Below are positions 1,801-15,838 of a DNA stretch of 64,000 nt, piece after piece. Under the pieces are notes generated by a model. The model was given only the letters and a program-made list of their open reading frames with translations. It searched no databases and had not been told where the DNA came from. The translations under genes were made by a program, and so were the position numbers. Numbering within the stretch: position 1 is the first letter of the stretch; the number at the start of each line of letters is the position of its first letter. Source of the DNA: Bacteriovorax stolpii (GTDB lineage: Bacteria; Bdellovibrionota; UBA2428); assembly GCA_945881775.1 (NCBI GenBank), contig CAMCVE010000001.1, positions 63,836-127,835 of the forward strand, written 5' to 3'.

Positions 1801-2512
1801 TCGAGCGATCGGTCGAAGCGAGACGGCGCAAGGTTCGCTGCACACGGCGGCTCAGGCGCCTCGGAATGCGACCGCTTTTGACCCACGCACCTCGCACGCG
1901 CGGGCTGGGCAAGAGATTGGCAAGAAGAGCGCATTCGTAGTCGCTCAAACGCGAAACGGGCTTGCGGAAGTAGTAGCGCGCGGCCGCTCCGATGCCGACC
2001 ACCCCAGGCCCCCACTCAGCGATGTTCAGATAAATTTCTAAGATACGTTTTTTCTCGAGCTCGGAGTCCATGTGTCGTGCGACGACGATTTCCTGAAGCT
2101 TACGAAAAAGTGGCGGCCTCGCGCCAAAATAGAGATTCTTTACGATCTGCTGATTCAGGGTGCTGATGCCGTGAGGAAACTCGCGTTTTTGGATGTCGGA
2201 GCGGATTTTCTCAAGAGACTGTTCCCACTCGACTCCCGTGTGTTTGAAAAAACGACCATCTTCAGCAGCGATCACCGCGAGCCATGCCGCGCGCGGCATC
2301 GACGAGAGGCGAACCCAGTCCTTGGGACGTCCCTCTTCCCAGCTCACCTCAGGGCGATAGTCGGGCGCGGGATAGCTGAGCTTGGGATAGAGATCCTTGG
2401 TCTGCGTAAAACGAACGAGCGCCCAGAGAGTCGACGCCCCGAGAAAACCGGCGCACACAAGTCCCAGGAGTCCCCAGCGTAGAATCCACTTGGAAATGCG
2501 GCCGCGCTTCAC
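1751..2512 (-). CDS. mtgA: monofunctional biosynthetic peptidoglycan transglycosylase (GT51)
   Basis: N-terminal TM anchor followed by a transglycosylase domain with conserved segments such as EDGRFFKHTGVEW and ISTLNQQIVKNLYF. The 3' end overlaps the topB 3' end by 50 nt (convergent). Confidence 0.8.
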   Translation of the reverse strand: MKRGRISKWILRWGLLGLVCAGFLGASTLWALVRFTQTKDLYPKLSYPAPDYRPEVSWEEGRPKDWVRLSSMPRAAWLAVIAAEDGRFFKHTGVEWEQSLEKIRSDIQKREFPHGISTLNQQIVKNLYFGARPPLFRKLQEIVVARHMDSELEKKRILEIYLNIAEWGPGVVGIGAAARYYFRKPVSRLSDYECALLANLLPSPRVRGAWVKSGRIPRRLSRRVQRTLRRLASTDRSIKAQLWARSESRRSQQ

Positions 2513-2624
2513 GAGATTCGATTATCACAGCAGCGTCTCAATCTGAACAGTCCTCTAAGGCGCCAAGAAATTTTCGGGAGCTCGCCGCAAAACAGGCAAG
2601 CCTCTGCTAATTTCCGCTAGCAGC

Positions 2625-3272
2625 ATGACTTTAAAGACCAAAGCGCTTCACAAACCCCTCCTCCGGGGGGTCTTTCACCAAGAAGCTTTTTTTGTTGCTC
2701 TCGGTGCCTGCGCCATGCTCGTCGCCAAAGCGTCCACTGGTGACGCCCGCCTCGCCAGCCTCGTCTACTCCTTTGGGCTTCTTTTCCTCTTTGGCGTTAG
2801 CGCCGTCTACCATCGTCCCCACTGGCAACCCAAGCAGCGCGCCCTCTTGAAGCGTCTCGATCATTCTGCAATTTTTATCTTTATTGCAGGCACTGTGACT
2901 CCCATGAGCCTTCTCGCCCTCCCGCCAGAGGACGGCCAAGAACTTTTTGCCATCATCTGGATCGTTGCCGTGGCAGGACTGCTGCAATCGATTTTCTGGG
3001 TCAAAGCTCCGAAGTGGTTTACGGCGATCATCTATGTGGCCATGGGATGGATTGCGGTGCCTTATGTGCGAGGTCTTGGATCGTCCCTGGGATCCTCGAG
3101 CCTCTGGCTGATTTTTGTGGGCGGAGTGGCTTATACGGTCGGTGCGATTTGCTATGCCACCCATAGGCCTCACCTTGTACCAAGAGTCTTCGGCTACCAC
3201 GAAGTTTTTCACCTGCTCACAGTGATCGCTGCCGCCTGCCACTTCGTCGTGATCTACCGTCTCATCCAATAG
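2625..3272 (+). CDS. hemolysin III / PAQR family membrane protein
   Basis: 215 aa with 7 predicted TM segments and His-containing motifs typical of the HlyIII/YqfA family (HRPHWQ..., HLLTVIAAACHF). Confidence 0.7.
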   Translation: MTLKTKALHKPLLRGVFHQEAFFVALGACAMLVAKASTGDARLASLVYSFGLLFLFGVSAVYHRPHWQPKQRALLKRLDHSAIFIFIAGTVTPMSLLALPPEDGQELFAIIWIVAVAGLLQSIFWVKAPKWFTAIIYVAMGWIAVPYVRGLGSSLGSSSLWLIFVGGVAYTVGAICYATHRPHLVPRVFGYHEVFHLLTVIAAACHFVVIYRLIQ

Positions 3273-3341
3273 CTTTCAGTCCCTGCCGCAGTGCCCCTCA
3301 ATCTAAAGGGTGAGATGCCTTAGTATCTAGAGTGAGAACTC

Positions 3342-3887
3342 ATGGATTTCGGCAGAAACGAACGTATTGCGATCCGCCCCTGGCAAATGTCAGATGCCCA
3401 GGCTTGGCAGCAAACAAGCCAAGATGCGGGCCTCAACCAGAATTCGATCAGCGGCTACAAACAAAGAGATCTCACGGGCGCGAAGATATTTATTCGCAAC
3501 GAAATGGCCGATTTTGAGAACAGCCGCCTCGGCCGCTGGCCTATCGTGCGCACGAGTGATCACGCCCTCATTGGCACATGTCTATTGCGCCCCGTCTCCT
3601 TCGACGAAACACCAGAGCGGCGCGAGGTCCAGCTTGGCTATCGTCTGACCCGCGACAACTGGGGCCAAGGGCTCGCAACCGAATGCGGCCGAATGCTACT
3701 GAACTACGGCTTTCGACGTGTGGGTCTCGAGAACATTTGTGCCTTCGCTGTGGCCGACAACAAGGCCTCGTTGCGTGTCATCGAGAAGCTCGGATTTGTG
3801 GCGCGCGGTGAGCGTCGCTTCATGAAACACAAGGTCCTCGTTTTTGACACGACGGCAGCCGATTGGGAAAGGATGCAGCTCGCGTGA
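3342..3887 (+). CDS. GNAT family N-acetyltransferase (RimJ/RimL-like)
   Basis: GNAT acetyl-CoA-binding motif (GYRLTRDNWGQGLATE) and C-terminal VIEKLGFVARGE. Size and N-terminus resemble ribosomal-protein acetyltransferases. Confidence 0.7.
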   Translation: MDFGRNERIAIRPWQMSDAQAWQQTSQDAGLNQNSISGYKQRDLTGAKIFIRNEMADFENSRLGRWPIVRTSDHALIGTCLLRPVSFDETPERREVQLGYRLTRDNWGQGLATECGRMLLNYGFRRVGLENICAFAVADNKASLRVIEKLGFVARGERRFMKHKVLVFDTTAADWERMQLA

Positions 3888-3951
3888 AATCGAAAGTCTT
3901 CATCTTAACTCTTGGAGCCTCGTCGACCCTAAGCCAATCTCAAGTATCTTC

Positions 3952-5016
3952 ATGTACAGCCGCATGAGCCAATTGACAGCCACCGAAACCGCATGGTCCG
4001 TGATCGAACGGCGCCTCGAAGACCTGAGCCTCAATCTCAACCGCAGCTCGCGCGCTTGGGTCGCTCGCCCCGAAGCGAGCCCCGCGCTTTTTCGAGCCCT
4101 CGCCCGCGCGCAACCGGCTCAGGTCGAAGTGCTCCACACCTTTAGGCCGGAGGTCGAGGACCTCGAGGCTGAAGGATTCTTCGCCAAGCCGGAGCTCAGC
4201 ACAGGCCCATTTGATTTGGTGCTCTTTGTGCCCACCAGGCAGCGCATTGAGAGCCTGGCCCTCTTGGCGCATGGACTCCTCAATCTTTCGCCTTCTGGCG
4301 TTTTTGTATTCTCATGCGCTAATGCCCAAGGCGCCGGAGGCTATCTGTCACAGCTTCGTGGCGCGTTTCCTGAACTCGAGGCCGACAGCGAACAGAAGTG
4401 CCGTGTTGTTGTCCTCAAGGCCTCACAGCTCACGAGACGAGAGCTCCTCGAAGCTTGGATTCAGGCCGCCGCTCCGGTGCAAGTTCCGGGCACCGAATTC
4501 CGTAGCCTACCCGGCATTTATGGCTGGAATAAAATCGACGAAGCCTCGACTCTTCTGGCGAGCACCCTGCCCGAGCTTCAAGGCCACGGAGCGGATTTAG
4601 GATCGGGCTATGGTTTTCTCTCGCACGCTGTTCTTAGTCGCTCAACTCAAGTCACTCGCCTCGAAGTCCTCGAGGCCGATTCGCGCGCGCTCGACTGCGC
4701 CCGCTTCAATCTTTCTACGTGGTCCGATCGCACGAGCTTTCACTGGCTCGATGTGACCTCACCCCAGACTCGCTCTAGATTTCAAGGTCTCGACTGGATT
4801 GTCATGAACCCTCCTTTTCACGAAGGCAGCGACGTGAGCGCGGGCCTTGGGAGCGCTTTCATCGAAAGCGCCGCCAAAATGCTCCGCAGTGGCGGAACTC
4901 TTTATATGGTCGCCAACACATTCTTAGCTTATGAAAAGGTCCTCGCCGCGCACTTTAGGAAAGTGTTACGCGTCACCGAGAGAGACGGATTTAAAGTGAT
5001 TCATGCCGAGCGCTAA
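3952..5016 (+). CDS. rRNA (guanine-N2)-methyltransferase, RsmC/RlmG-like
   Basis: Methyltransferase small domain with an NPPFHEG motif and an LGSGYGFLS SAM-binding motif. The track ORF starts at 3844 and overlaps the GNAT gene. The first ATG clear of the GNAT stop is at 3952 (MYSRMSQL). Confidence 0.65.
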   Translation: MYSRMSQLTATETAWSVIERRLEDLSLNLNRSSRAWVARPEASPALFRALARAQPAQVEVLHTFRPEVEDLEAEGFFAKPELSTGPFDLVLFVPTRQRIESLALLAHGLLNLSPSGVFVFSCANAQGAGGYLSQLRGAFPELEADSEQKCRVVVLKASQLTRRELLEAWIQAAAPVQVPGTEFRSLPGIYGWNKIDEASTLLASTLPELQGHGADLGSGYGFLSHAVLSRSTQVTRLEVLEADSRALDCARFNLSTWSDRTSFHWLDVTSPQTRSRFQGLDWIVMNPPFHEGSDVSAGLGSAFIESAAKMLRSGGTLYMVANTFLAYEKVLAAHFRKVLRVTERDGFKVIHAER

Positions 5017-5737
5017 ACGCCATCCCCGCGTCGACCAACTGATCTCTGCCCTGGGTTACGGCAGCCGTCGCGATGTTGATATTTGGATCAATAAGTCAGA
5101 TCGCATTCAAGCCAAAGGCGTGGACAAGCTTCGCTCCGACATGCGCCTAGACCCTAAGCTCCTGAGTTTCGACGGCGAGCCTCTTGATCATCCTGAGGGG
5201 CTGCTGGTTGTGATGAACAAACCCCTGGGTCGCGTTTGCAGCCACGACCCCCGCGAGGGACCTTCTGTTTACGAACTTCTAGAGCCGCGCTGGAACCTGC
5301 GTTCGCCAACAGTTGAGAGCATCGGCAGGCTCGACAAAGACACGAGCGGCCTGCTGCTGCTCACTGACCGACATGATCTTATCCATCGCCTCACATCGCC
5401 AAAGAATCACGTTCCCAAGGTCTACGAAGCCACACTCCAGGCTTCAGTAACCCAAAAGATGATCGATATCCTCGCCTCAGGCACACTCCTTATCCACGGC
5501 GAAACAAAACCCTGTTTGCCTGCCAAACTCGAAAGCCTCGGCGACAAAAAGGCCCGCATCACCCTGAGCGAAGGTCGCTACCATCAGGTTCGCCGCATGC
5601 TGGGGGCCGTTGGAGCTCCGGTCTTTAAGCTTCATCGCAGTCAGTTTGGACCCCTCACTCTCGATGCGCTGCCCGAGGGCGAGCTTCGCAGCATTCCCTT
5701 CCCCGAGAATTGGGTGACTCCCGAGGCCGAGATCTGA
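5003..5737 (+). CDS. pseudouridine synthase, RsuA/RluF family (S4 domain plus catalytic domain)
   Basis: N-terminal S4-like segment and a catalytic-Asp motif (RLDKDTSGLLLLTD). It overlaps the upstream MTase stop by 14 nt, which suggests coupling. Confidence 0.8.
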   Translation: MPSAKRHPRVDQLISALGYGSRRDVDIWINKSDRIQAKGVDKLRSDMRLDPKLLSFDGEPLDHPEGLLVVMNKPLGRVCSHDPREGPSVYELLEPRWNLRSPTVESIGRLDKDTSGLLLLTDRHDLIHRLTSPKNHVPKVYEATLQASVTQKMIDILASGTLLIHGETKPCLPAKLESLGDKKARITLSEGRYHQVRRMLGAVGAPVFKLHRSQFGPLTLDALPEGELRSIPFPENWVTPEAEI

Positions 5738-5752
5738 TAGCTTCGGTCGCGA

Positions 5753-6577
5753 ATGTCGAAGCCCCTCTCAAGTCTCGCGGATCTCTGGCCCACACAATCT
5801 GTGGAGCTCCTTAAGGCCTTGCACATTCTCACGCGTGACGGAGCGCTGAACCAGGACTCTCGCCGCAAACTCAAACAGGTCCAACATCTTGTTCAGCTTG
5901 TGACGCCCCAACTCTCAAACATGAAGACGATCGCCGATCTTGGTGCAGGAAAATCTTACTTAGGGTTCATGCTCTACGATCTCTGGATGCGCGAAAAGTC
6001 AGACACCCATCTTTGGGCGATTGAGCAACGCCCCGAGCTCGTCGCCACCTGCCGTCGCCTGGCTTTGGATTCGGGCTTTAACCGCATTTCTTTTGTCGCG
6101 CAGTCGATCCTTGAGGCAATCAGCTCAAGCGAAGTTCCCAAAGAGATTGATGCCGTGACGGCTCTGCATGCCTGTGACACTGCCACAGACGAAGCGATTG
6201 CGTTTGCGCTTCGCAAGAAGGCCAAAGTCATCGCTCTCGTACCCTGCTGCCAGGCCGAAGTGGCTCGCCTCTTACCGAGCCTCCCGTCCGAGAGCACGCG
6301 CGAACTAAAAAGTCTCTGGAGTCACAATCTGCATCGCCGCGAATTTGGCTCTCACCTCACCAACGTCATTCGCTCGCTGTTCCTCGAGTCACGAGGCTAT
6401 AAAGTGCGAGTGACCGAGCTCATCGGCTGGGAGCACTCCATGAAAAATGAGCTCATCGTTGCCGAGCGTGTTGATCGTCCAAATACCCAAGCGCGTCGCT
6501 ACTTCGATGAGTTCATGGCCCGCTTCCCTCTGCCTATGAAACTCTTTGATCTCGTTCCACCGGCGGATGAGCCCTAA
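5753..6577 (+). CDS. class I SAM-dependent methyltransferase (Methyltransf_32-like)
   Basis: DLGAGKSYLGF glycine-rich SAM motif and an ALHACDTATD acidic motif. Assignment to the family is from memory of the motif style only. Confidence 0.5.
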   Translation: MSKPLSSLADLWPTQSVELLKALHILTRDGALNQDSRRKLKQVQHLVQLVTPQLSNMKTIADLGAGKSYLGFMLYDLWMREKSDTHLWAIEQRPELVATCRRLALDSGFNRISFVAQSILEAISSSEVPKEIDAVTALHACDTATDEAIAFALRKKAKVIALVPCCQAEVARLLPSLPSESTRELKSLWSHNLHRREFGSHLTNVIRSLFLESRGYKVRVTELIGWEHSMKNELIVAERVDRPNTQARRYFDEFMARFPLPMKLFDLVPPADEP

Positions 6578-6585
6578 AGTCGCCG

Positions 6586-8517
6586 ATGTCAAAAACACGA
6601 CTTCTCACAAAATCTGGATTCAAGACGGCCTGCGAATGCCCTTCGAAACTTTTCTTTTCGGGCAAGAGCGACTACGCCTCTACGCGTTCGGACAACAGCT
6701 TCCTCGATGCCTTGGCCGAAGGTGGCTTTCAGGTGGGAGAGCTCGCCAAACTCTTCAATCCGGGTGGTTTGGAAATAGAGACACTCGAGAGCGAGATCGC
6801 CCTAAGCCAGTCGCGCGAGCTTCTCAATCGAGAGACGGTCACGCTTTTTGAGGCGGCCCTGGGTTTTGAAAAGCTTCTTGTGCGTGTGGACATCCTCCGC
6901 AAGGTCGGCCATCGCGTGGACCTTGTCGAAGTCAAAGCCAAAGGTTTTGACTCCACCGAGAGCAATCTTTTTTGGAACAAAAAGAACAAGGGTCTCATGT
7001 CTCGTTGGGAGCCCTACCTTCTTGATGTCGCCTTCCAGACCTACGTCGCTCAAAAAGCTTTTCCCGAGTGGGAAATAAGCCCCTACCTCATGCTCGCAGA
7101 CAAGCACGCCGTCACGAGCGTCGAAGGCCTGAACCAGTTTTTTGAACTCACGAAAGATGCGACGGGTAAATCCCGAGCCTCGCTTTCCCCGGGGCGCAGC
7201 CTCGCCGATGCCGGCGCCCCCATCCTCAAAGAGGTCGATGTCTCGGCTGAAGTGAATTTCATCCACCGTGAGTGGGAATCCCACGGTAAAAGTTTTGAAG
7301 AACTTGTTGAGTGGCTTGCCGAAGCCTATGCCGAGGACCGTTACCTTCCGGTGGGACTTGGCTCGAAATGCAAGAACTGCGAATTCCGCGTCGAGACCCA
7401 GTCCCCTGCGAAGGGACAAAAAATCGGATTTGAAAAATGTTGGTCCGAGCAAGCGAGTCTGAAGCCTGAGGACTTTAGTCGTCCTTTTGTTTTTGACATC
7501 TGGAAGTACCGTTTGGCTGACAAGAAAATTTCCGAAGGGATTTTTTTCCAGGATCAACTTGACCCCGCAGAATTCGGATCTGTGGACGCCGACCAAGCCG
7601 GTATGCAGTCGTGGCAACGGCAGGCCTTGCAAGTGCGCAAGGTGATCGAAAAGGATACGACTCCCTATATCGACAAGCAGGGACTTCTCGATGACTTTTC
7701 AAGATGGATCTATCCTCTGCATTTTATTGATTTCGAAACGAGCCAGGTGGCAATCCCCTTCGGGAAAGGGCGTCATCCCTACGAGCAAGTCGCTTTCCAG
7801 TTTTCGCATCACCGCCTCGAAGCCGACGGGCGCATCTCTCACGCCACCGAGTACATTGACCTCAGCCGCGGTAAGTTCCCAAGTTTTGATTTCGTACGCG
7901 CTCTCCGCCGGGCCCTGAGCGAAGATCGCGGCAGTATCTTCCGCTACTCTCCTCACGAGAACGTTGTGCTCTGCCAGATTCATGAGCAGCTCCTGGCGTC
8001 CGAGGAACCAGATCGCAAAGAACTTTGCCAGTGGATTGAAACTGTAACGACCAAGAAAGATGCGTGGAAGGGACCCCGCAGCATGGTTGATCTTTTAGAG
8101 GTCGTCATGAATCGCTATTACAACCCGCTCACGGACGGATCAAACTCACTTAAGAGCGTTCTTCCCGCTGTGCTCACGAGCTCCAAATATCTTCAGAGGA
8201 AATATTCTCAACCCATCTATGGGGCCGCAGAGAGCCTCACAAGTCACAACTACAAGGACTGGACTTGGATCCAGCGAAACGCGAGCGGCAAGATTCTCGA
8301 CCCGTATTCGCTGCTTGGAGAAAATGAAATCCGCGAAGGGGGCGCCGCCATGACGGCTTACGCCCGCACTCAATTTGCTTCGATGCCCGAGAGTGAGCGC
8401 GCTAAGCTCGCTCGGTCACTTCTGAGATACTGCGAACTCGACACCTTCGCGATGGTGCTCGTCTACGAACACCTAGCCGATGAAATCGGCTGGTGGAACA
8501 GAGCTACTGACACTTAA
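6586..8517 (+). CDS. DUF2779-like protein: N-terminal Cas4/RecB-like PD-(D/E)XK nuclease with 4 Cys, C-terminal DnaQ-like DFET segment
   Basis: N-terminus (LLTKSGFKTACECPS) resembles DUF2779/Cas4 N-termini. A D...EVK nuclease triad candidate is present (RVDIL...VDLVEVKAK), together with a CxC plus CxxC cysteine set. Downstream there is an IDFETSQ motif and a second acidic block. Confidence 0.55.
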   Translation: MSKTRLLTKSGFKTACECPSKLFFSGKSDYASTRSDNSFLDALAEGGFQVGELAKLFNPGGLEIETLESEIALSQSRELLNRETVTLFEAALGFEKLLVRVDILRKVGHRVDLVEVKAKGFDSTESNLFWNKKNKGLMSRWEPYLLDVAFQTYVAQKAFPEWEISPYLMLADKHAVTSVEGLNQFFELTKDATGKSRASLSPGRSLADAGAPILKEVDVSAEVNFIHREWESHGKSFEELVEWLAEAYAEDRYLPVGLGSKCKNCEFRVETQSPAKGQKIGFEKCWSEQASLKPEDFSRPFVFDIWKYRLADKKISEGIFFQDQLDPAEFGSVDADQAGMQSWQRQALQVRKVIEKDTTPYIDKQGLLDDFSRWIYPLHFIDFETSQVAIPFGKGRHPYEQVAFQFSHHRLEADGRISHATEYIDLSRGKFPSFDFVRALRRALSEDRGSIFRYSPHENVVLCQIHEQLLASEEPDRKELCQWIETVTTKKDAWKGPRSMVDLLEVVMNRYYNPLTDGSNSLKSVLPAVLTSSKYLQRKYSQPIYGAAESLTSHNYKDWTWIQRNASGKILDPYSLLGENEIREGGAAMTAYARTQFASMPESERAKLARSLLRYCELDTFAMVLVYEHLADEIGWWNRATDT

Positions 8518-8531
8518 TACGCACCAAAACG

Positions 8532-9029
8532 CTATTCGCGGAAATTGCCGAACTGCATCGGAATGCCCAGCTTGGATTCTTGGCCCTTAAGAAGCGCAAT
8601 CGCGTCCTGGAGCTCATCGCGACTCTTGCTCGTGACGCGGACTTTCTCGTCCTGAATCTGAGCCTGGAGCTTGCCCGCGTTCTGCTTCAAAAACGCGACG
8701 ATCTCTTTGCCCTTTTCCTTCGAAACACCGGCGGCCACCTTGGCGACCATGCGGCCACCAGAACCGCTGGCTTTTTCGACAGGTTGGTAGTCCAGAGCCA
8801 ACAAAGAGATGCCCCGTTTGGTGAGCTTCTGATGGAAGGTCTCTTGGATCGCCTCCATCTTGTACGACTCGGAGCAAGTGATCTTGATGCTCTTCTCTTT
8901 TTGGTCCATGACGATCTCGGCCTGGATACCTTTGAAATCGTAGCGGTTACGAATCTCTTTGAGGGTCTGATTGATGGCGTCATCCATGGACTGCCAGTTA
9001 ATTTCGGAGCTCACGTCAAAAGAAGGCAT
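8532..9029 (-). CDS. yajQ: YajQ family cyclic-di-GMP-binding protein (UPF0234)
   Basis: It starts MPSFDVSSEINWQ, which matches the characteristic YajQ N-terminus. Length is about 165 aa. The track ORF extends 12 codons further upstream. Confidence 0.85.
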   Translation of the reverse strand: MPSFDVSSEINWQSMDDAINQTLKEIRNRYDFKGIQAEIVMDQKEKSIKITCSESYKMEAIQETFHQKLTKRGISLLALDYQPVEKASGSGGRMVAKVAAGVSKEKGKEIVAFLKQNAGKLQAQIQDEKVRVTSKSRDELQDAIALLKGQESKLGIPMQFGNFRE

Positions 9030-9130
9030 GCCTCTGAAATAGAACAAGAGGCTTGGGGGGGTCAAGCGCCCGGAGACTCTTCAAAGATCGGTGGGCAGAC
9101 CCGCAAAAAGAAGATAGAATCTGAAGCAAC

Positions 9131-9670
9131 ATGAGATTTCATCACCTTGCCCTTGCCCTCACGACTCTATTTGCCTCAATCTCACACGCCGCAAACGTCA
9201 AAGTCGGCGACAACGCTCCACTCTTCAAAGTTAAAAAACAAGACGGAAGCGACTTCGACCTCGCCAGCCGAAAAGGCAGCTGGACAGTGCTTTATTTCTA
9301 TCCCAAAGCTGGAACTCCAGGCTGCACCAAACAGGCTTGCGCGTTCCGCGACAACATCAAGAAAGTTCGTGCCGCCGGTGCTGAGGTTTACGGCATCAGC
9401 TCCGATACCGTCGCCGCTCAAGCCGCTTTTCACAAAGAGCATAAGCTGAGCTTCGATTTGCTGGCAGATCCCGATGACAAAGCGCTGAACGCCTACGGAA
9501 CAAAAATTATGGGCCTCAGCTTTTCGAAGCGTTGGACGTTTATCATCGATCCCGAGCTCAAGATTCGCTCGATCGACAAGGACGTCGATCCTGCCTTGGA
9601 CGCTGTCCGCGTCGCAGCCAAAGTGACCGAACTGCGCGCGGCTTCGGTCCCAAACGCTCCAACATTTTGA
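9131..9670 (+). CDS. bcp: periplasmic peroxiredoxin, Bcp-type (AhpC/TSA family)
   Basis: Signal peptide followed by a thioredoxin-fold peroxiredoxin carrying the peroxidatic Cys motif (PKAGTPGCTKQAC). Confidence 0.85.
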   Translation: MRFHHLALALTTLFASISHAANVKVGDNAPLFKVKKQDGSDFDLASRKGSWTVLYFYPKAGTPGCTKQACAFRDNIKKVRAAGAEVYGISSDTVAAQAAFHKEHKLSFDLLADPDDKALNAYGTKIMGLSFSKRWTFIIDPELKIRSIDKDVDPALDAVRVAAKVTELRAASVPNAPTF

Positions 9671-9683
9671 AGCAAAGCTTTTG

Positions 9684-10898
9684 CTAGAACTGAACACTCA
9701 AGCGTGCGGCCACGTCGTACTCTTGATCTCCGAGGCGAAGCTCGCCGTCTAAGTCACCAAAGTGCCAACTGACGCTCGGCTCAAACTGCAGATCCTGCAT
9801 GAGTTCAAACGCAACTCCAAGTTTCGAGAGGCCACTCGAGTCATTTAAATTAACGAGGTTCAGCAGACTGATCGTGGTGTGATTCCACGATCCTGGAGTC
9901 GGAGCAAAAATCGAAAAGAGCGCGTAGTCTCTGGCGAGCTGATAGGGTGTGTAAGCGCCCGCCGCAAGTGCCCAGACGTAGTCCGATTTCGCCTGATAGC
10001 CATCGTCGTTTCGGAAATACTCCACAGCGAAACTCAGGCTGTCATTGTCCGCGTAAGGCAGCTCATAACTAGCCCCGGCGACCCAGTCGAAGTTCGCGCC
10101 TTCAGGCACATAAGCTCCCGTCTGTCCAAAGAGCGTCGAGTTGGAACGGCTCGAATAAGCGAGCTCTGAATAAACATCAAAGTCGCCAAGAGCGGCAGAG
10201 AGATCCATTCCAAAAACAGCTTTTTGCCCTTGGAGTTTGGAGGCCGTGACTGCGAACTCGGCAGAACTCACAGGAATTTCAAGACGCAAAGAATTCCCGA
10301 CTTCGCTCAGCCGATCGGCACCTTCGAAGGAATTGACATAATAGAGATTGGCACTTCCGAGCGGCACATGTGTCTTAAGGATCGACACGCCCGAGCGGCG
10401 ATCATCCGAGTACAAGAGATCGCGAGGCGCAGCATTGACCACATCCGTCGGATTCCAGAACTTGCCACTGCCCCATTTAATCTTCTGCTTTCCGAGTGTG
10501 AAGAAGACGTCCTTGCTGGCATTAAAAAACAACTTCAACTCTTCGACGTCCGACGTCGAAGCCGGAACCGCAAGCTGCCCCGCATCTGACACACCTTCGA
10601 CCACGCCACGAAATTTTGCATAGGCCCGAATGTCGTTTCTCAGCCTGGCATCCAAGTAGACCGAGAGCGTATTGAGATTCCTGAGATAGTCGCGCGCTCC
10701 GACGACCGAATCATAAAAATCTACAGCAAGTGTGCCGCCGAGCTTGAGTCGATCTTCATCGGCGCCCGACTTTTCCTCAGCGCTAATGCCCTGTTCAGCG
10801 CCGAATCCTTTCTCAAATTCGTCGGAGGAGTCCTGCGCATAGAGCGGTAGAGCCATGAAAAGCGAAAAAACCAATGCAAAGTTATCAAATTTTCTCAT
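9684..10898 (-). CDS. outer-membrane beta-barrel protein, unknown family; last gene of the ABC/LolA-like cluster
   Basis: Signal peptide (MRKFDNFALVFSLFMALPLYA-QD). The length of about 400 aa is rich in alternating aromatic and polar residues. The C-terminal sequence ...RLSVQF ends in Phe, the usual BAM recognition signature. The start was chosen at the second Met; the track start is 10928. Confidence 0.5.
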   Translation of the reverse strand: MRKFDNFALVFSLFMALPLYAQDSSDEFEKGFGAEQGISAEEKSGADEDRLKLGGTLAVDFYDSVVGARDYLRNLNTLSVYLDARLRNDIRAYAKFRGVVEGVSDAGQLAVPASTSDVEELKLFFNASKDVFFTLGKQKIKWGSGKFWNPTDVVNAAPRDLLYSDDRRSGVSILKTHVPLGSANLYYVNSFEGADRLSEVGNSLRLEIPVSSAEFAVTASKLQGQKAVFGMDLSAALGDFDVYSELAYSSRSNSTLFGQTGAYVPEGANFDWVAGASYELPYADNDSLSFAVEYFRNDDGYQAKSDYVWALAAGAYTPYQLARDYALFSIFAPTPGSWNHTTISLLNLVNLNDSSGLSKLGVAFELMQDLQFEPSVSWHFGDLDGELRLGDQEYDVAARLSVQF

Positions 10899-10903
10899 AC
10901 ATA

Positions 10904-11680
10904 TCACTTGCTCTTGGATTCGATCCAAGCCTTGCTAAAAATGTTGGTGTCGAGAGATGAGAGATCGGTCTCCTTGATCAAGATGACAGTGGAATTTCCT
11001 TTCTCGATCTCATCAAAAATCCGCATCTCCTCGGGGATCCAGACATTGGCCTTTTTGGAGGGGCTAAATTTCTTGGTCCACTTTGGATAGAACGTCGTGC
11101 GCATCAGCTTGCCCGAGAGTGACGACTCTTCACGCTTAAGCACGTTCTTGTCGAGCTGATCCACCCACAGCGAAATCACGGGGTAGGCCACATCGGATTT
11201 AGGCTTCGCAACAAGTTTCATCTTGTGCGTCTTGAAATTGCCGAGCGTGCCCTCACCCTCGTAAGTGACGTCGTACTCATCGGCAAGCCGAGACTCATCG
11301 AAATCTCCGCGCCGCGAATTGGTGCCACCAATGCGCTCACGCTCAGTCCGACGCTCCCATTTCCCTGTCGAGGGATCGTACATCCACAGGTTCTTGTCGA
11401 TCTTAAGGTACCCTTTGCCCGCCTCTTCTTTGGGCTTCGTAAAAAGAATCATAAACTTGTCGTCGGTGTCACGACGATAGACCACAGCCTGAAAGACTTT
11501 AGGCTCGAGTTTGCGCTCGGTCTCTTTGACATAGCAGAGAGACGTGTAGTCACCCGAATTGCGCTGTCTCTCGTCGACAAGCTTTACAAGATCAAGGGCC
11601 TCTTGGGGTTTAAGAGGTACGGCCTGCACCGCTCCAGCCAGAAATATTGCGATAAGAATGAGTACTTTCATAGACATCAA
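10904..11680 (-). CDS. LolA-like outer-membrane lipoprotein-sorting family protein (periplasmic)
   Basis: Signal peptide (MKVLILIAIFLAGAVQA) and a soluble domain of about 230 aa. Size and composition resemble the LolA-like superfamily proteins that sit next to FtsX ABC transporters. Family assignment is from memory, not a search. Confidence 0.55.
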   Translation of the reverse strand: MMSMKVLILIAIFLAGAVQAVPLKPQEALDLVKLVDERQRNSGDYTSLCYVKETERKLEPKVFQAVVYRRDTDDKFMILFTKPKEEAGKGYLKIDKNLWMYDPSTGKWERRTERERIGGTNSRRGDFDESRLADEYDVTYEGEGTLGNFKTHKMKLVAKPKSDVAYPVISLWVDQLDKNVLKREESSLSGKLMRTTFYPKWTKKFSPSKKANVWIPEEMRIFDEIEKGNSTVILIKETDLSSLDTNIFSKAWIESKSK

Positions 11681-11687
11681 AGATCTC

Positions 11688-13046
11688 CTAGTTCACGTGG
11701 TTGATCGCGGTGATGGGCTTCATTTTGCTGGCTCGGTAGGCAGGAATAAAAGCCCCCAAGATCAATAACACAGACAGCGTCGTAAACGTTATGAGAAGGT
11801 CCGAAGCTTGAAGGTCGAGCCAAAGAGAATTGGACATCAGGAACATCACAAAGGCTTCGGAGCTAATCTGAACATCAATCAGATTCAAAAGGCCCACAAT
11901 TCCCGATCCGATGAGGATTCCTGCACCGACACTCATCACCGCCAAGAGGCACGATTCGATGAGGAACATCACCAAGACCCCGCGTCGTTGCAGACCAAGA
12001 GCCCGCATCGTTCCGATTTCAGGTGTGCGCTCACGAATCGACATCCACATGTTGTTCACGAGACCAACGGTTACAATAAACATCAGCGTGGCCGTAAGCG
12101 CTACGGTGAGCGCATTGAAAATATCGAGGATCCATTTGAGGAACGAGGTCTCGTCCTGCCAGTCTGTCACATCGAGCTTTTGGCCGGACCATGACTCACC
12201 CGCAACGCGCTCGAATTTCATCCAAAAAGGGTTGGCATCCTTCTCCATGAGGGCATAAGAAGCCGCCGAAAGCCCCTTGCGCAATCTGTCATCTACTGCA
12301 GAAACCTGATCGATAGACTTCAAGTAGATCTGGAAAACACCGGTCGTATCCGGATCGAGATCGTAAACCTCTCGTGCATCGAGATGGTTAATAAATGTCG
12401 TGAAACTTGAGATGAGACCGAGATTCTTTAGGATGGCAGCAACCCGAAGATCCTTAGTGTTGTAGATGTTGCGGTAGGTGGGCATCGAAATGGTGACGGT
12501 GTCGCCTACTCGCACCTTGAGCTTCTTAGCCTGCGAAGCAAACATCACAATGCTTCCCTGCTGGGCTAGGTCCATCATGCGACCCGGGAGCTCAGGCTTG
12601 GCATCCGATGCAAGATCACCTTCGATGTAATCACCTCTCTCTGCAAGCGCGAGCCCTCCGAGCAAAGTCTCTTCCTTGGCCATATCGATGCCCGACATCG
12701 GGACCATGATCGAGTTCTCATCCGAAATAATTTTTCCGTAAGCACGCACGCGCTCAACAACAAGCGTTGCCTCAGGAACAGTCTCTGCGATGAGAGTACG
12801 AAGCTTTGAAGCGCGATTGATCACGGGAGCCGCTGAAGACTGACTGATTTTTAGAAAACCACCCACGTTGAGGTGACCTGTCGAAAGCGCTGTCGCATTC
12901 TCGATCATGCGATTGCGAATTCCCGCCGTCAGAGCGAGCATCACCACAACCAAGGTGGTTACGAGCGCGATCGCGCCTCCCAGAACGAGGCTTCGCCCGC
13001 TGTGGCTTGTGAGGTTGCGAAAAGCGATCACAAAAAATTGTCTCAT
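11688..13046 (-). CDS. ABC transporter permease, FtsX/MacB-like (1 TM, periplasmic domain, 3 TM)
   Basis: N-terminus MRQFFVIAFRNLTSH... is typical of FtsX-family permeases, and the C-terminus has three TM helices. There is an SD (AAGAAGGG) upstream of the ATG at 13046. Confidence 0.8.
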   Translation of the reverse strand: MRQFFVIAFRNLTSHSGRSLVLGGAIALVTTLVVVMLALTAGIRNRMIENATALSTGHLNVGGFLKISQSSAAPVINRASKLRTLIAETVPEATLVVERVRAYGKIISDENSIMVPMSGIDMAKEETLLGGLALAERGDYIEGDLASDAKPELPGRMMDLAQQGSIVMFASQAKKLKVRVGDTVTISMPTYRNIYNTKDLRVAAILKNLGLISSFTTFINHLDAREVYDLDPDTTGVFQIYLKSIDQVSAVDDRLRKGLSAASYALMEKDANPFWMKFERVAGESWSGQKLDVTDWQDETSFLKWILDIFNALTVALTATLMFIVTVGLVNNMWMSIRERTPEIGTMRALGLQRRGVLVMFLIESCLLAVMSVGAGILIGSGIVGLLNLIDVQISSEAFVMFLMSNSLWLDLQASDLLITFTTLSVLLILGAFIPAYRASKMKPITAINHVN

Positions 13047-13060
13047 CAGAGAGGCCCTTC

Positions 13061-15148
13061 TTATTCACTGGACTGCATCGCTTCGAGCGGTGAGATTTTC
13101 ATCGCACGCCAAGCGGGGTACTGAGTCGAAACCAAAGCCACAATCGTCATACACAGTGACACAATCGCAATATGCATAATATTGACCTGAAGGTAGAGTC
13201 GATCTCCCGAGAAAAAGAAGGTGGCAACGTCGCCCATCGCGGGAATGCCACGAGCGCCGACGGCCAGCACGATACCAACGCCAATGAGCGTACCCACAAG
13301 ACCAAAAACAAAACTCAAGACAAATGTTTCGCGCAGAAAGAGTCCAAGCAGGAAAGAGCGTTGAGCTCCGATGGCGCGCATCGTCCCGATTTCCCGACGA
13401 CGCTCGAGAGTCGCCATCAGCATCGAATTCATAATGATAAACGTTGCGACGCTAAAGATGACAAAAACAAAGAGATACAAGACTCCGCGTACCATTACAG
13501 TCAGTTGACCCACGATGCCCGCAGAGTCGCGCCAGTCGGCGGCCTGAAGTCCGAGTTTTTTCTCATCATTTTTTGCTCGAATCTCTTCGAGGGTGGCGTC
13601 TAGACGCGAGGGATCTTTTAGCACAACGGAAGCGTTCATAAACACGCCGTCTTCCATGTCTGAGCGTGAGTATTTGGTGTCGAGATCGCGTCGTTCGCTG
13701 TCGACCTGACCGAAGCGACCCTGGGTTAGGCTCTGCAAATTGCTCGTGACTCGAGTTTCTGAGGTCGACTCTGTCGCCGCTCCAAACATCGCCTCAATAT
13801 CGTCACGGCCCACATCACCGAGACCCATCTCCGCATCAAGACTTTCGGTTTCGCTACGACGTTCAGCCGTGAGAATCCCGAAAAGCTTGCGGAATGAGAC
13901 CATATCCATCACGTTCAGAGCACCCGCTAGCGGCGAACTTTCGAAACTTCTGAAGCGGTAAGTGCCGTAAACTTTCATGTTCACTGATGAGGAATATCCG
14001 GACTTCGTGAATCCCGTGATCGCGAAGGTGTCGCCCACTTTTACTTTATAGAGGATGAGCTGAGGAGCGATCTGATCATAAAAAAAGGTGTAACGAGTGG
14101 GGAAATTCGTGTCATCCATTGCAAGGAACTCAGACACAAGCTCGGGAAATTTTGATGACTTTGAACCCAATAGTTGCTGAAGCCTGGGCAGCAAAGTCGC
14201 CGCAGCAGGCGGCTCGATCTGACTGTAGACTTCGGCTGCCTGCGCGATATTGGCCTTTACTTTATCTTGAAGGTCTTTACTGCTTTTAAGAGTGAGCTTC
14301 TCTTTATCAATCTGCTTTTTGATTTGATCGAGACGACGCGCGACTCGGTGCTTGACCTGGTTTTCGTAAACAAAATCACTAAATAAAAAGCCTCGGCCCC
14401 CTTCAGGGATCATCGTCCCTTTGACGACTTCAAACTGCGGAAAGGCTTCCTCAAAAAGCTCTGGAACTGTGCCGAAGTAGCTCAGGTAGAGTTGGTTGTC
14501 ATCGAAGATAAGCGGCGCCATCTTGTTCGCCAGAAATTCGAGACGGGCGTCGCTGTGCCGATCGAAGTCATTCCAGAATGACTGATCCAGGGCCTTAGCG
14601 ATATTCTCACCGGCGTCCTTGAAGAGTTTCTCACCCCCGAAGACACCTCCGAGATTGTCCTGATTCTCGGTCTGACTTCGTTCAATATCGCGCACAATCA
14701 TGCGCACATGTTCTTTTAGGGCAGCGAGGCGCGCGTCATCGCGCGGTGTCTTCTTGTAGGACGCCCGCAATTCTTCGAGCTTGAGGTCCAGGAGATTTCC
14801 GGGATTGAGCATCGCGAAACTAATACCCATTGGAATGACGGCTTTGATATTGGGAATTTCTAAAAGTGCAGTCTTAACTTTTTTGAAATCAGGCAGGTAA
14901 CCAATGTCGGGGAGGTTCCCATCGCTTCCACCAAGGACGGCGATCTTCTCTTTCGCGTCGGCGGCGTAGACCTGGATGTCGCCCGTAAGACTGTTGGTGA
15001 GACTTTTTTGCATGCCACCTGAAATCGCATCGACCACAGAATTGCCGACAATTGCTAGCGTCGTCCCGAAAACAATGATGAGTCCTGTGACGAGAGTCTT
15101 CAAGCGATGAACGAAAAGATTACGAAACGCGAGTTTCCAAAGAAGCAT
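13061..15148 (-). CDS. ABC transporter permease, FtsX/MacB-like with a large (about 450 aa) periplasmic domain
   Basis: N-terminus MLLWKLAFRNLFVHRL plus a TM helix, and a C-terminal FtsX three-helix bundle. At 695 aa it is unusually large for a LolC/E-like permease. Confidence 0.8.
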   Translation of the reverse strand: MLLWKLAFRNLFVHRLKTLVTGLIIVFGTTLAIVGNSVVDAISGGMQKSLTNSLTGDIQVYAADAKEKIAVLGGSDGNLPDIGYLPDFKKVKTALLEIPNIKAVIPMGISFAMLNPGNLLDLKLEELRASYKKTPRDDARLAALKEHVRMIVRDIERSQTENQDNLGGVFGGEKLFKDAGENIAKALDQSFWNDFDRHSDARLEFLANKMAPLIFDDNQLYLSYFGTVPELFEEAFPQFEVVKGTMIPEGGRGFLFSDFVYENQVKHRVARRLDQIKKQIDKEKLTLKSSKDLQDKVKANIAQAAEVYSQIEPPAAATLLPRLQQLLGSKSSKFPELVSEFLAMDDTNFPTRYTFFYDQIAPQLILYKVKVGDTFAITGFTKSGYSSSVNMKVYGTYRFRSFESSPLAGALNVMDMVSFRKLFGILTAERRSETESLDAEMGLGDVGRDDIEAMFGAATESTSETRVTSNLQSLTQGRFGQVDSERRDLDTKYSRSDMEDGVFMNASVVLKDPSRLDATLEEIRAKNDEKKLGLQAADWRDSAGIVGQLTVMVRGVLYLFVFVIFSVATFIIMNSMLMATLERRREIGTMRAIGAQRSFLLGLFLRETFVLSFVFGLVGTLIGVGIVLAVGARGIPAMGDVATFFFSGDRLYLQVNIMHIAIVSLCMTIVALVSTQYPAWRAMKISPLEAMQSSE

Positions 15149-15157
15149 TGGCTGACC

Positions 15158-15838
15158 TCAGGACTCAGCAACAATGACACCATCGCGCAGCTTGATAATG
15201 CGGTTGGCTTGACGGATCACGTTGTCATCATGAGTTGAAAAGAGAAAAGTGGTTTGCTCACTGCGGTTGATTTCTTTCATGAGGTCAATGATGCTTTGTC
15301 CCGTTACGGAATCGAGGTTGGCGGTAGGCTCGTCGGCAAGAACAATCCTTGGCTTGGTGACAAGAGCCCGAGCAATCGCAACGCGCTGACGCTGACCGCC
15401 GGAAAGTTCATTGGGCCGATGCTTCATATGATCTTGTAAGCCAACTTTCTCGATAAAATGCATCACGCGACTGCGGCGCTCCTCTTTACTGAGGTCTTTC
15501 ATCAGCAAAAGGGGAAACTCGACATTGTCATAGACATTCAGGACGGGAATCAAATTGAAAGACTGGAAGATAAATCCGATCTTGTGAAGTCGAAGATCCG
15601 TGAGCTCTCGCTCCGTAAGCTGGGCGGTGTTGGATCCCCCGACGACAACATCTCCAGAAGAGGCCACATCCACGCAACCGATGAGATTGAGAAGAGTCGT
15701 CTTGCCACTGCCCGAAGGACCCGCGATCACCGTAAACTCACCCCGATCGATACTGAGGCTGACATTCTTCAAGGCTGGGACCGTAACTTTTCCAAGATGG
15801 TATTCTTTGACGACGTTCGAAAGTTGAATGTTGTCCAT
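15158..15838 (-). CDS. ABC transporter ATP-binding protein (LolD/MacB-ATPase-like)
   Basis: Walker A (GPSGSGKTTLL), ABC signature (LSGGQRQRVAIARAL), Walker B (LADEPT) and H-loop are all present. Confidence 0.9.
   Translation of the reverse strand: MDNIQLSNVVKEYHLGKVTVPALKNVSLSIDRGEFTVIAGPSGSGKTTLLNLIGCVDVASSGDVVVGGSNTAQLTERELTDLRLHKIGFIFQSFNLIPVLNVYDNVEFPLLLMKDLSKEERRSRVMHFIEKVGLQDHMKHRPNELSGGQRQRVAIARALVTKPRIVLADEPTANLDSVTGQSIIDLMKEINRSEQTTFLFSTHDDNVIRQANRIIKLRDGVIVAES

Follow-up and report, generated by a model that had tools for sequence, protein, structure and literature searches.

What does the protein encoded at positions 6586–8517 of the 64,000-nucleotide (nt) stretch of Bacteriovorax stolpii contig CAMCVE010000001.1 analyzed here (the window) do, and does its place directly behind a set of rRNA-modification genes reveal its substrate? 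A preliminary description, made from the nucleotide sequence, had assigned the protein to the DUF2779 family, read it as a Cas4-like PD-(D/E)XK nuclease joined to a DnaQ-like exonuclease segment and proposed, from the operon, an RNA or ribosome-related role. The open reading frame (ORF) and all of the motifs it quoted were recovered in the translation, and both nuclease halves are supported by conservation and by structural models. The placement behind the rRNA-modification genes is the gene order of one narrow lineage and not functional coupling. On balance the protein is rather more probably a stand-alone cytoplasmic nuclease with two active sites that would act on DNA ends, in repair or recombination and/or in the removal of foreign linear DNA.

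The protein matches the DUF2779 profile of Pfam (PF11074) at 70.7 bits, well above the gathering cut-off of 23.3 (E = 1.8e-19), over residues 379–521 (positions 7720–8148) and profile positions 1–126 of 126, and its isolated C-terminal half scores 73 bits, in agreement with the family assignment made earlier. More than 5000 full-length homologs cover 98–100% of the query, and a profile search at E ≤ 1e-3 returned 8451 clusters at 50% identity, with alignments spanning approximately residues 3–660 in proteins of ~650–680 residues. Judged from these matches, the protein is a full-length, ordinary and intact member of DUF2779/PF11074. The ratio of nonsynonymous to synonymous substitution rates (dN/dS) against orthologs is ~0.04–0.06, with dS saturated; the gene is real and under purifying selection. 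A recent insertion of the gene was considered and is unsupported, as its GC content and its GC content at third codon positions (GC3) match those of its neighbors; together with the low dN/dS, this base composition indicates that the gene has long been resident and constrained in the lineage. No helicase or ATPase motor, P-loop or NTPase Pfam domain was found in the protein, so that a search for a motor of the AddAB/RecBCD type failed.

Conservation was assessed in two alignments, one of 39 homologs (48–87% identity) and one of 141 representatives of 50%-identity clusters (36–48% identity to the window protein). The candidate catalytic residues of both halves, together with four cysteines, are each kept in at least 137 of the 141 representatives (Table 1). 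The AlphaFold2 model of the full protein is confident (predicted local distance difference test score (pLDDT) 89.5, predicted template modeling score (pTM) 0.87) and has two domains, the first an α/β domain of residues 1 to ~300. A Foldseek search of the PDB with the full model matched this N-terminal half to Cas4 (7MI4; probability 0.99, E = 0.018), the exonuclease 3L0A, MGME1 (probability up to 0.91), ACE1 and SSO0001 (4IC1), and in BFVD the same half was matched by phage PD-(D/E)XK/Exonuclease V-like proteins with E-values of 7e-7 to 1e-3 and a probability of 1.0. Combined with near-invariant D102, E115 and K117, the acidic and lysine residues expected to persist among homologs, these fold matches support the Cas4/AddB-like PD-(D/E)XK reading. 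Within the PD-(D/E)XK superfamily this half forms a remote lineage, and by the standard of hidden Markov models (HMMs) it is no Cas4-family member.

The N-terminal motif quoted in the preliminary description, LLTKSGFKTACECP, corresponds to residues 6–19. A cysteine quartet was claimed from this motif and a second pair, and a quartet does exist, in the order found in Cas4 and AddB, with one cysteine at the N terminus and three toward the C terminus (C18, C262, C265 and C285). Its composition had to be revised, however: C16 of 'ACECP' is variable, being Cys in 20 of the 39 close homologs and 11 of the 141 cluster representatives, and the fourth member is instead C285.

The C-terminal domain begins, from residue 378, with a β1-β2-β3-αA-β4-αB topology and ends in the long helix that bears the Yx3D motif (AlphaFold2). 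The YEQVAFQFSHH motif lies at residues 399–409. Modeled alone, this half has a pLDDT of 85.3, and a Foldseek search with the model returned RNase T (probability 0.84–0.93, E = 6e-3 to 3e-2), the exonuclease domains of RB69 gp43, Pol delta and Sso PolB1, and 3'hExo. The matches are remote, with template modeling (TM) scores of 0.3–0.44 and E-values of ~1e-2, weak but consistent. An hhalign comparison of the C-terminal profile with an E. coli DnaQ sequence gave a probability of 0.2 and was discarded, leaving both E458 and D502 as Exo II candidates. The DnaQ-like DEDD reading of this half is borne out by the RNase T-type folds and by D382 and E384, invariant in the 141 representatives, and Y615 and D619, each present in 140. 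The structure predictions thus recovered both a RecB-like and an RNase H-like fold.

Table 1. Features of the DUF2779 gene, its predicted protein and the adjoining genes (positions in the window; residue numbers refer to the DUF2779 protein; fractions are residues conserved among the 39 homologs or the 141 cluster representatives)
Feature	Position	Strand	Basis
DUF2779-family gene, complete, predicted two-nuclease protein	6586..8517	+	ATG-started ORF, 643 residues
PD-(D/E)XK (Cas4/AddB/MGME1-like) nuclease domain, residues 1 to ~300	6586..7485	+	AlphaFold2 model, Foldseek
C18, first invariant Cys, putative Fe-S ligand	6637..6639	+	Cys in 39/39, 137/141
E89, acidic residue N-terminal to the D...ExK core	6850..6852	+	39/39, 139/141
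D102 (RVDIL), PD-(D/E)XK aspartate	6889..6891	+	39/39, 140/141
E115-V116-K117, (D/E)xK motif (VDLVEVKAK)	6928..6936	+	E115 140/141, K117 141/141
Y144...D147...Q151 helix, RecB/Cas4-type Q/Y motif region	7015..7038	+	Y144 136/141, D147 140/141, Q151 141/141
C262-K-N-C265, CxxC pair of the Cys quartet	7369..7380	+	C262 141/141, C265 140/141
C285 (FEKCW), fourth invariant Cys	7438..7440	+	141/141
Helical linker, residues ~301-372, with invariant R345, Q346 and Q349	7486..7701	+	Model secondary structure, invariant columns
Predicted DnaQ-like (RNase H-fold) DEDDy 3'-5' exonuclease domain, residues 373-643	7702..8514	+	Pfam, model, Foldseek
D382-F-E384 (HFIDFET), Exo I DxE on β1 (strand 378-388)	7729..7737	+	141/141 each
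E458 (HEN), putative carboxylate of Exo II, in the opening turn of the helix that follows β4	7957..7959	+	141/141; placed from topology
D502, alternative or additional Exo II candidate	8089..8091	+	140/141
Y615-C-E-L-D619, Exo III Yx3D (DEDDy subtype), last long helix 602-633	8428..8442	+	Y615 and D619 each 140/141
GNAT acetyltransferase gene	3342-3887	+	Upstream context
RsmC-like MTS methyltransferase gene	~3952-5016	+	Upstream context
RsuA-like pseudouridine synthase gene	5003-5737	+	Upstream context
Methyltransf_32 (MT32) gene	5753-6577	+	Upstream context
Gap from MT32 stop to DUF2779 start, 8 nt (agtcgccg)	6578..6585	+	Sequence
Convergent YajQ/DUF520 gene, closing the transcription unit	8532..9065	-	14 nt past the DUF2779 stop

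The two-nuclease architecture is not new, having been published in silico earlier. Within the RNase H-like superfamily, Majorek et al. (2014) assigned PF11074 to the clade of 3'-5' exonucleases, as family F.17, and recorded its co-occurrence with a DUF83-like PD-(D/E)XK domain (PMC3985635). For MMSYN1_0389 of JCVI-syn3.0, a report in mSphere (2026) gave HHpred matches to Cas4 (7MID, E = 2e-6) and MrfB (8UN9, E = 5e-7) and described this same Cas4-like/DEDD fusion, in which D/E/K is conserved and four acidic residues are joined by a Tyr instead of the His; the gene is quasi-essential, and the mollicute protein retains two of the four cysteines (PMC13621843). In M. bovis, a transposon mutant of the DUF2779 gene grew poorly with host cells and was recovered together with DnaB, HolA, RecD, GdpP and NrnA mutants. 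No biochemical study of any DUF2779 family member was found in the literature, and the family is in that respect uncharacterized, as had been stated.

Domains of the Cas4, AddB and MGME1 type are DNA enzymes. For a DNA-end nuclease of the kind favored here, the PD-(D/E)XK site (E89, D102, E115-x-K117 and Q151) would take the 5'-ended DNA strand, while an iron-sulfur (Fe-S) cluster on C18, C262, C265 and C285 probably clamps the N-terminal fold. The DEDDy site (D382, E384, E458 and/or D502, and Y615-x3-D619) would take the 3'-ended strand by two-metal-ion catalysis. Linear, gapped or flapped DNA could in this way be trimmed or destroyed from both polarities, independently of a helicase, and the enzyme may process DNA ends in repair or recombination and/or clear foreign linear DNA. 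The Fe-S binding, the polarities, the DNA substrate and the biological role assigned here are modeled on Cas4, AddB, MGME1 and the DEDD enzymes and on the DNA-centered neighborhoods of homologs; the company of the M. bovis mutant (DnaB, HolA and RecD) was also counted for a DNA role. The gene itself is a horizontally mobile accessory gene, and in this Bdellovibrionota lineage it has become the last gene of a housekeeping operon for rRNA modification.

The genes upstream of DUF2779 are those previously listed (GNAT, RsmC-like, RsuA-like and methyltransferase), co-directional with it and separated by short gaps or overlaps, and the 8-nt gap before its start is as stated. The corresponding gap is 7 nt in locus L004 (loci fetched for comparison are numbered with the prefix L). 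The 8-nt spacing is tight, as the term 'translationally linked' had suggested, but it does not amount to strict translational coupling, although in L005 the ortholog at 69% identity starts inside MT32, with a 4-nt overlap. A promoter and terminator scan of positions 2400–9300 gave site counts at or below shuffle expectation, so the operon is deduced from spacing only; DUF2779 is probably co-transcribed with the rRNA-modification genes. The block MTS-PseudoU-MT32-DUF2779 (PseudoU, the RsuA-like gene) is shared by the window contig and relatives of 87% and 69% identity, and L005 keeps it despite rearranged flanks. When the RsmC-like, RsuA-like and MT32 proteins of the window were compared by tblastn with the fetched flanks of DUF2779 loci, linkage of the block to DUF2779 was confined to L001–L005 (≥69% identity), and none of the three genes was found within the fetched flanks of the 85 other DUF2779 loci. 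In L091 (MT32 at 74% identity) MTS-PseudoU-MT32 is kept with no DUF2779 after MT32, in L092 MT32 stands beside a DinG-like helicase gene, and in genome GCA_041391385.1 MT32 and DUF2779 are on different contigs (L093 and L006). MT32 is slowly evolving and vertically conserved in Bdellovibrionota, with hundreds of homologs at 65–75% identity. The absence of the genes from the 85 loci, the lack of DUF2779 in L091 and the separate contigs of GCA_041391385.1 make the rRNA-modification link a property of one lineage.

Some further observations concern the upstream genes themselves. Two starts are possible for the RsmC-like gene: an ORF taken at its longest, from a TTG at 3844 (3844–5016, + strand), overlaps the GNAT gene, and the call in L001, a contig identical to the window, corresponds to position 3952 (354 residues). 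The product scores far below the RsmC equivalog cut-off (93 vs 295 bits), so that its rRNA target is putative. MT32 (5753–6577, + strand) received no NCBIfam assignment, and its PADLOC match to mad2 of the MADS system (E = 3e-6) covers the methyltransferase region only. This match led MT32 and DUF2779 to be considered as a methyltransferase-nuclease pair of the restriction-modification (R-M) kind, which was rejected as a family feature, MT32 being absent in 85 of 85 loci outside the clade and conserved vertically in its own right.

Among genomes scanned at one per species, at least 561 carry a relative of the DUF2779 protein, and the best 80 relatives span more than 10 phyla at a flat 42–49% identity to the query. 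Pairs from a single phylum have a median identity of 0.49 and pairs from different phyla one of 0.48, the latter reaching 0.62–0.68, and for 27 of 79 sequences the nearest neighbor lies in another phylum. Such flat identities and cross-phylum nearest neighbors indicate a horizontally moving accessory gene; on sequence comparison, DUF2779 is highly mobile between phyla and resides, outside the window's lineage, in variable regions or on plasmids. Plasmid records with a homolog number 31. On the Prosthecochloris conjugative plasmid pPAES01 (L094, NC_011061.1; 3697–11065) the gene is clustered with those for H-NS, an SOS-response-associated peptidase (SRAP), a zincin-like (ArdC-type) peptidase, a thermonuclease and an 'RNA-binding domain' protein, and on a Comamonas plasmid its neighbors are an IS5 element, an integrase and a restriction gene of type I. 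A SRAP gene also lies near DUF2779 in L007. Neither PHROGs nor tblastn against 50,697 phage genomes yielded a DUF2779 homolog. In BFVD, the giant-virus proteins A0A3G4ZWN9 (Faunusvirus) and A0A5K0U8I2 (Yasminevirus), of 846 and 892 residues, align over the whole two-domain model (735–814 columns, E = 2e-11 and 1e-10, TM ~0.5), so that nucleocytoplasmic large DNA viruses, too, encode full-length structural look-alikes with a Cas4-like and a DEDD half; the link of the fold to viruses comes solely from such structure matches in BFVD.

Several observations weigh against a DNA-end nuclease built in this way. Pfam searches of isolated residues 1–300 gave only noise at E ≤ 10, with no Cas4 or PDDEXK model, and the PADLOC match to Cas4 is marginal (E = 0.005–0.02, the 37 residues 232–268), so that the profile evidence sought for a Cas4-type nuclease did not materialize; phmmer searches of PDB sequences, with the single sequence and with a profile, likewise gave no meaningful match. 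Foldseek E-values against solved structures are weak, at 0.015–0.2 for the full model and 0.003–0.2 over both searches. The cysteine spacing is CX2CX19C, compared with the canonical CX2CX5C of Cas4 and AddB. Many DEDD enzymes are RNases and RNase T is the best fold match of the C-terminal domain, so an RNA substrate is conceivable. Within its own lineage, RNA-modification genes are the only conserved neighbors of DUF2779. At least one of the MmeI-like, McrBC, dGTPase and WYL genes, from which DNA-centered surroundings are read, occurs in 31 of the 85 loci, which is a raw count without a background rate.

The neighborhoods outside the clade bear on a more specific role, that of a dedicated anti-phage or anti-plasmid component, serving in defense islands as effector or accessory, for example together with the MmeI/PglX-like methyltransferase-restriction enzyme and the radical-SAM trio, or acting alone under WYL control to degrade invading DNA. 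All four of the nearest homologs outside the clade (52–55% identity) stand beside an MmeI/PglX-like methyltransferase-restriction gene, in L088 with the DUF2779 start 4 nt after its stop, and three of the four (L088–L090) have a radical-SAM gene nearby. By tblastn, an island of radical SAM (~441–448 residues, 45–76% identity between loci), p128 (~128–146 residues) and an MmeI/PglX-like N6_Mtase+Eco57I protein (~1060–1100 residues) adjoins DUF2779 in seven Bdellovibrionota-type loci (L006, L008, L013, L054 and L088–L090; for example L089:1372–6946). The small protein p69 (~69–72 residues) is present in six of the seven, L054 being the exception, and McrB/McrC directly follow DUF2779, downstream, in L090 and L013. 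Neither p128 nor p69 has a Pfam match, and the island may be an undescribed defense module. Over the 85 loci, MmeI-like R-M genes occur in 10, McrB/McrC in seven and dGTPase in three, and 16 have a WYL-WCX regulator no more than 8 kb from DUF2779, which in eight is immediately adjacent. The regulator is usually co-directional with DUF2779, upstream or downstream of it and in several phyla (L017:9941–10969, L058:7012–7989, L076:6784–7914, L080:6951–7844, L085:4452–5471 and others), which suggests that DUF2779 is often under a WYL-type switch sensing nucleic acid or DNA damage. Further recurrent neighbors are UPF0227, ADP-ribosylglycohydrolase and AAA/STAND ATPases, and SNF2 (DrmD/ZorD-like) neighbors occur as well. 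The dGTPase, SNF2 and AAA/STAND neighbors and the extensive horizontal transfer of the gene speak for a defense role. Yet there is no fixed partner, the commonest immediate neighbor family accounting for seven of 132 neighbor proteins; the DUF2779 protein has no PADLOC match beyond the marginal one to Cas4; the counts of defense genes lack a background rate; no defense genes flank DUF2779 in the window; and quasi-essentiality in the phage-free JCVI-syn3.0 argues for a housekeeping DNA role in some lineages. A dedicated defense function is, on these grounds, unlikely, though it is the strongest of the alternatives.

Much less probable is a nuclease of nucleotide salvage, degrading fragments from both ends to mononucleotides for the nucleotide pools. 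It would account for the NT5C 5'-deoxynucleotidase genes near DUF2779 in six loci and the dGTPase genes in three, for the co-culture growth defect that the M. bovis mutant shares with those of the NrnA nanoRNase and GdpP, and for quasi-essentiality in a salvage-dependent minimal mollicute; but NT5C and dGTPase genes are themselves often associated with defense, the association extends to fewer than 10% of loci, no salvage genes adjoin the gene in the window, and an Fe-S-stapled two-domain enzyme of 643 residues seems elaborate for bulk degradation. Slightly lower still is the standing of the RNA or ribosome-related nuclease originally proposed, which would join the RsmC-like, RsuA-like and MT32 enzymes in trimming or surveying rRNA. 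The co-directional genes with their 8-nt spacing, the survival of the four-gene block with a 4-nt overlap through the rearrangement of flanks in L005, and the inclusion among DEDD enzymes of RNases T and D, which process rRNA and tRNA 3' ends (RNase T being the top fold match of the C-terminal domain), all speak for it. The context from which it was drawn does not carry it, however: the preliminary description had allowed that homologs never co-localizing with rRNA-modification genes would refute it, and co-localization holds in L001–L005 and in none of the 85 loci outside the clade of ≥69% identity, which beyond this lineage is close to that outcome. The block without DUF2779 in L091, the separate contigs in GCA_041391385.1, the vertical inheritance of MT32 set against the mobility of DUF2779, and the action of Cas4/AddB/MGME1-type domains on DNA add to this. 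A variant, in which this Bdellovibrionota lineage captured a horizontally acquired dual nuclease into the rRNA-modification operon and the enzyme now acts on RNA, for example in rRNA-end trimming or quality control, is to be given the same small chance; if true, an Fe-S nuclease of the Cas4 family would have been turned to making ribosomes. Least credible, and very improbable, is a processing nuclease like those of CRISPR adaptation or of Argonaute guides, with the Cas4-type domain and the DEDD trimmer making defined DNA fragments. Cas4 and ACE1 are among the closest solved folds, and Cas4 and DnaQ-like DEDDh domains do trim prespacers in CRISPR adaptation, but neither Cas1, Cas2 nor Argonaute is among the commonest families of the 132 immediate neighbors, the window has no CRISPR-like repeats or Rfam CRISPR match, and DUF2779 is far more widespread than any one such system.

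In the remainder of the window, a cluster on the - strand at 9684–15838 encodes a 404–414-residue protein without a Pfam match, a TP_0789-like protein, two FtsX-family permeases (452 and 695 residues) and an ABC ATPase; it resembles an export system of the MacB/Lol type and is conserved in L004. Searches of the whole 64 kb for tRNA, tmRNA and Rfam-family RNA genes, and for direct repeats of the CRISPR kind, found none. Over nine genes compared, the window is 100% identical to part of the 256-kb ENA metagenome contig ERZ27280300 k141_1294838, and among named relatives those nearest to its DUF2779 and MT32 proteins are metagenome-assembled genomes of Bdellovibrionota.

DUF2779 is a large and widespread nuclease family without assays and with a quasi-essential member in JCVI-syn3.0, so learning its function would fill a real gap. 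To that function the window copy adds little, being a typical member whose sole distinctive trait, the operon context, is confined to one lineage. The non-mollicute branch, with its intact set of four cysteines, nevertheless lends itself better to Fe-S biochemistry than the protein of Mycoplasma does.

Set beside known systems, the N-terminal half shares with Cas4 (SSO0001, 4IC1; Geobacter Cas4-Cas1, 7MI4/7MID) and AddB the D...ExK core, the Q/Y helix and the Fe-S 'staple' arrangement of four cysteines, of which one is N-terminal and three are C-terminal. It differs from them by an insertion of ~85 residues (residues ~175–260) and by the fused second nuclease, and from Cas4 also in having no cas or CRISPR context and no sequence-level HMM match. 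MGME1, Exo5 and Dna2 share the Cas4-like PD-(D/E)XK fold and act on ssDNA ends; MGME1, with no detectable sequence similarity to the window protein, has neither the Fe-S cluster nor a fused DEDD domain. The C-terminal half shares with DEDD exonucleases (RNase T, the proofreading domains of B-family polymerases and MrfB/YprB, PF13482) the RNase H-like fold, the DxE on β1 and the Yx3D motif. Unlike these, it has HEN (E458) rather than NxxFD at the Exo II position, an extra invariant D502 and large insertions (residues ~541–584), and where RNase T and MrfB have His the window protein has Tyr.

The same pairing of a PD-(D/E)XK domain with one of the DEDD clade is found in the COG2251/PF13482 family F.13 (Majorek et al., 2014), which is a separate Pfam family, often with tandem AAA domains, whereas the window protein has no NTPase or helicase domain. 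Closest are MMSYN1_0389 and the other members of PF11074, which have the same two domains, the same D...ExK and a DEDD site with Tyr at the general-base position. A weak tail match also connects the window protein with the UU173 subfamily model of mollicutes. Compared with MMSYN1_0389, in which two of the four cysteines are present, the window protein and its branch (the 141 representatives) have all four, and the window copy sits behind rRNA-modification genes.

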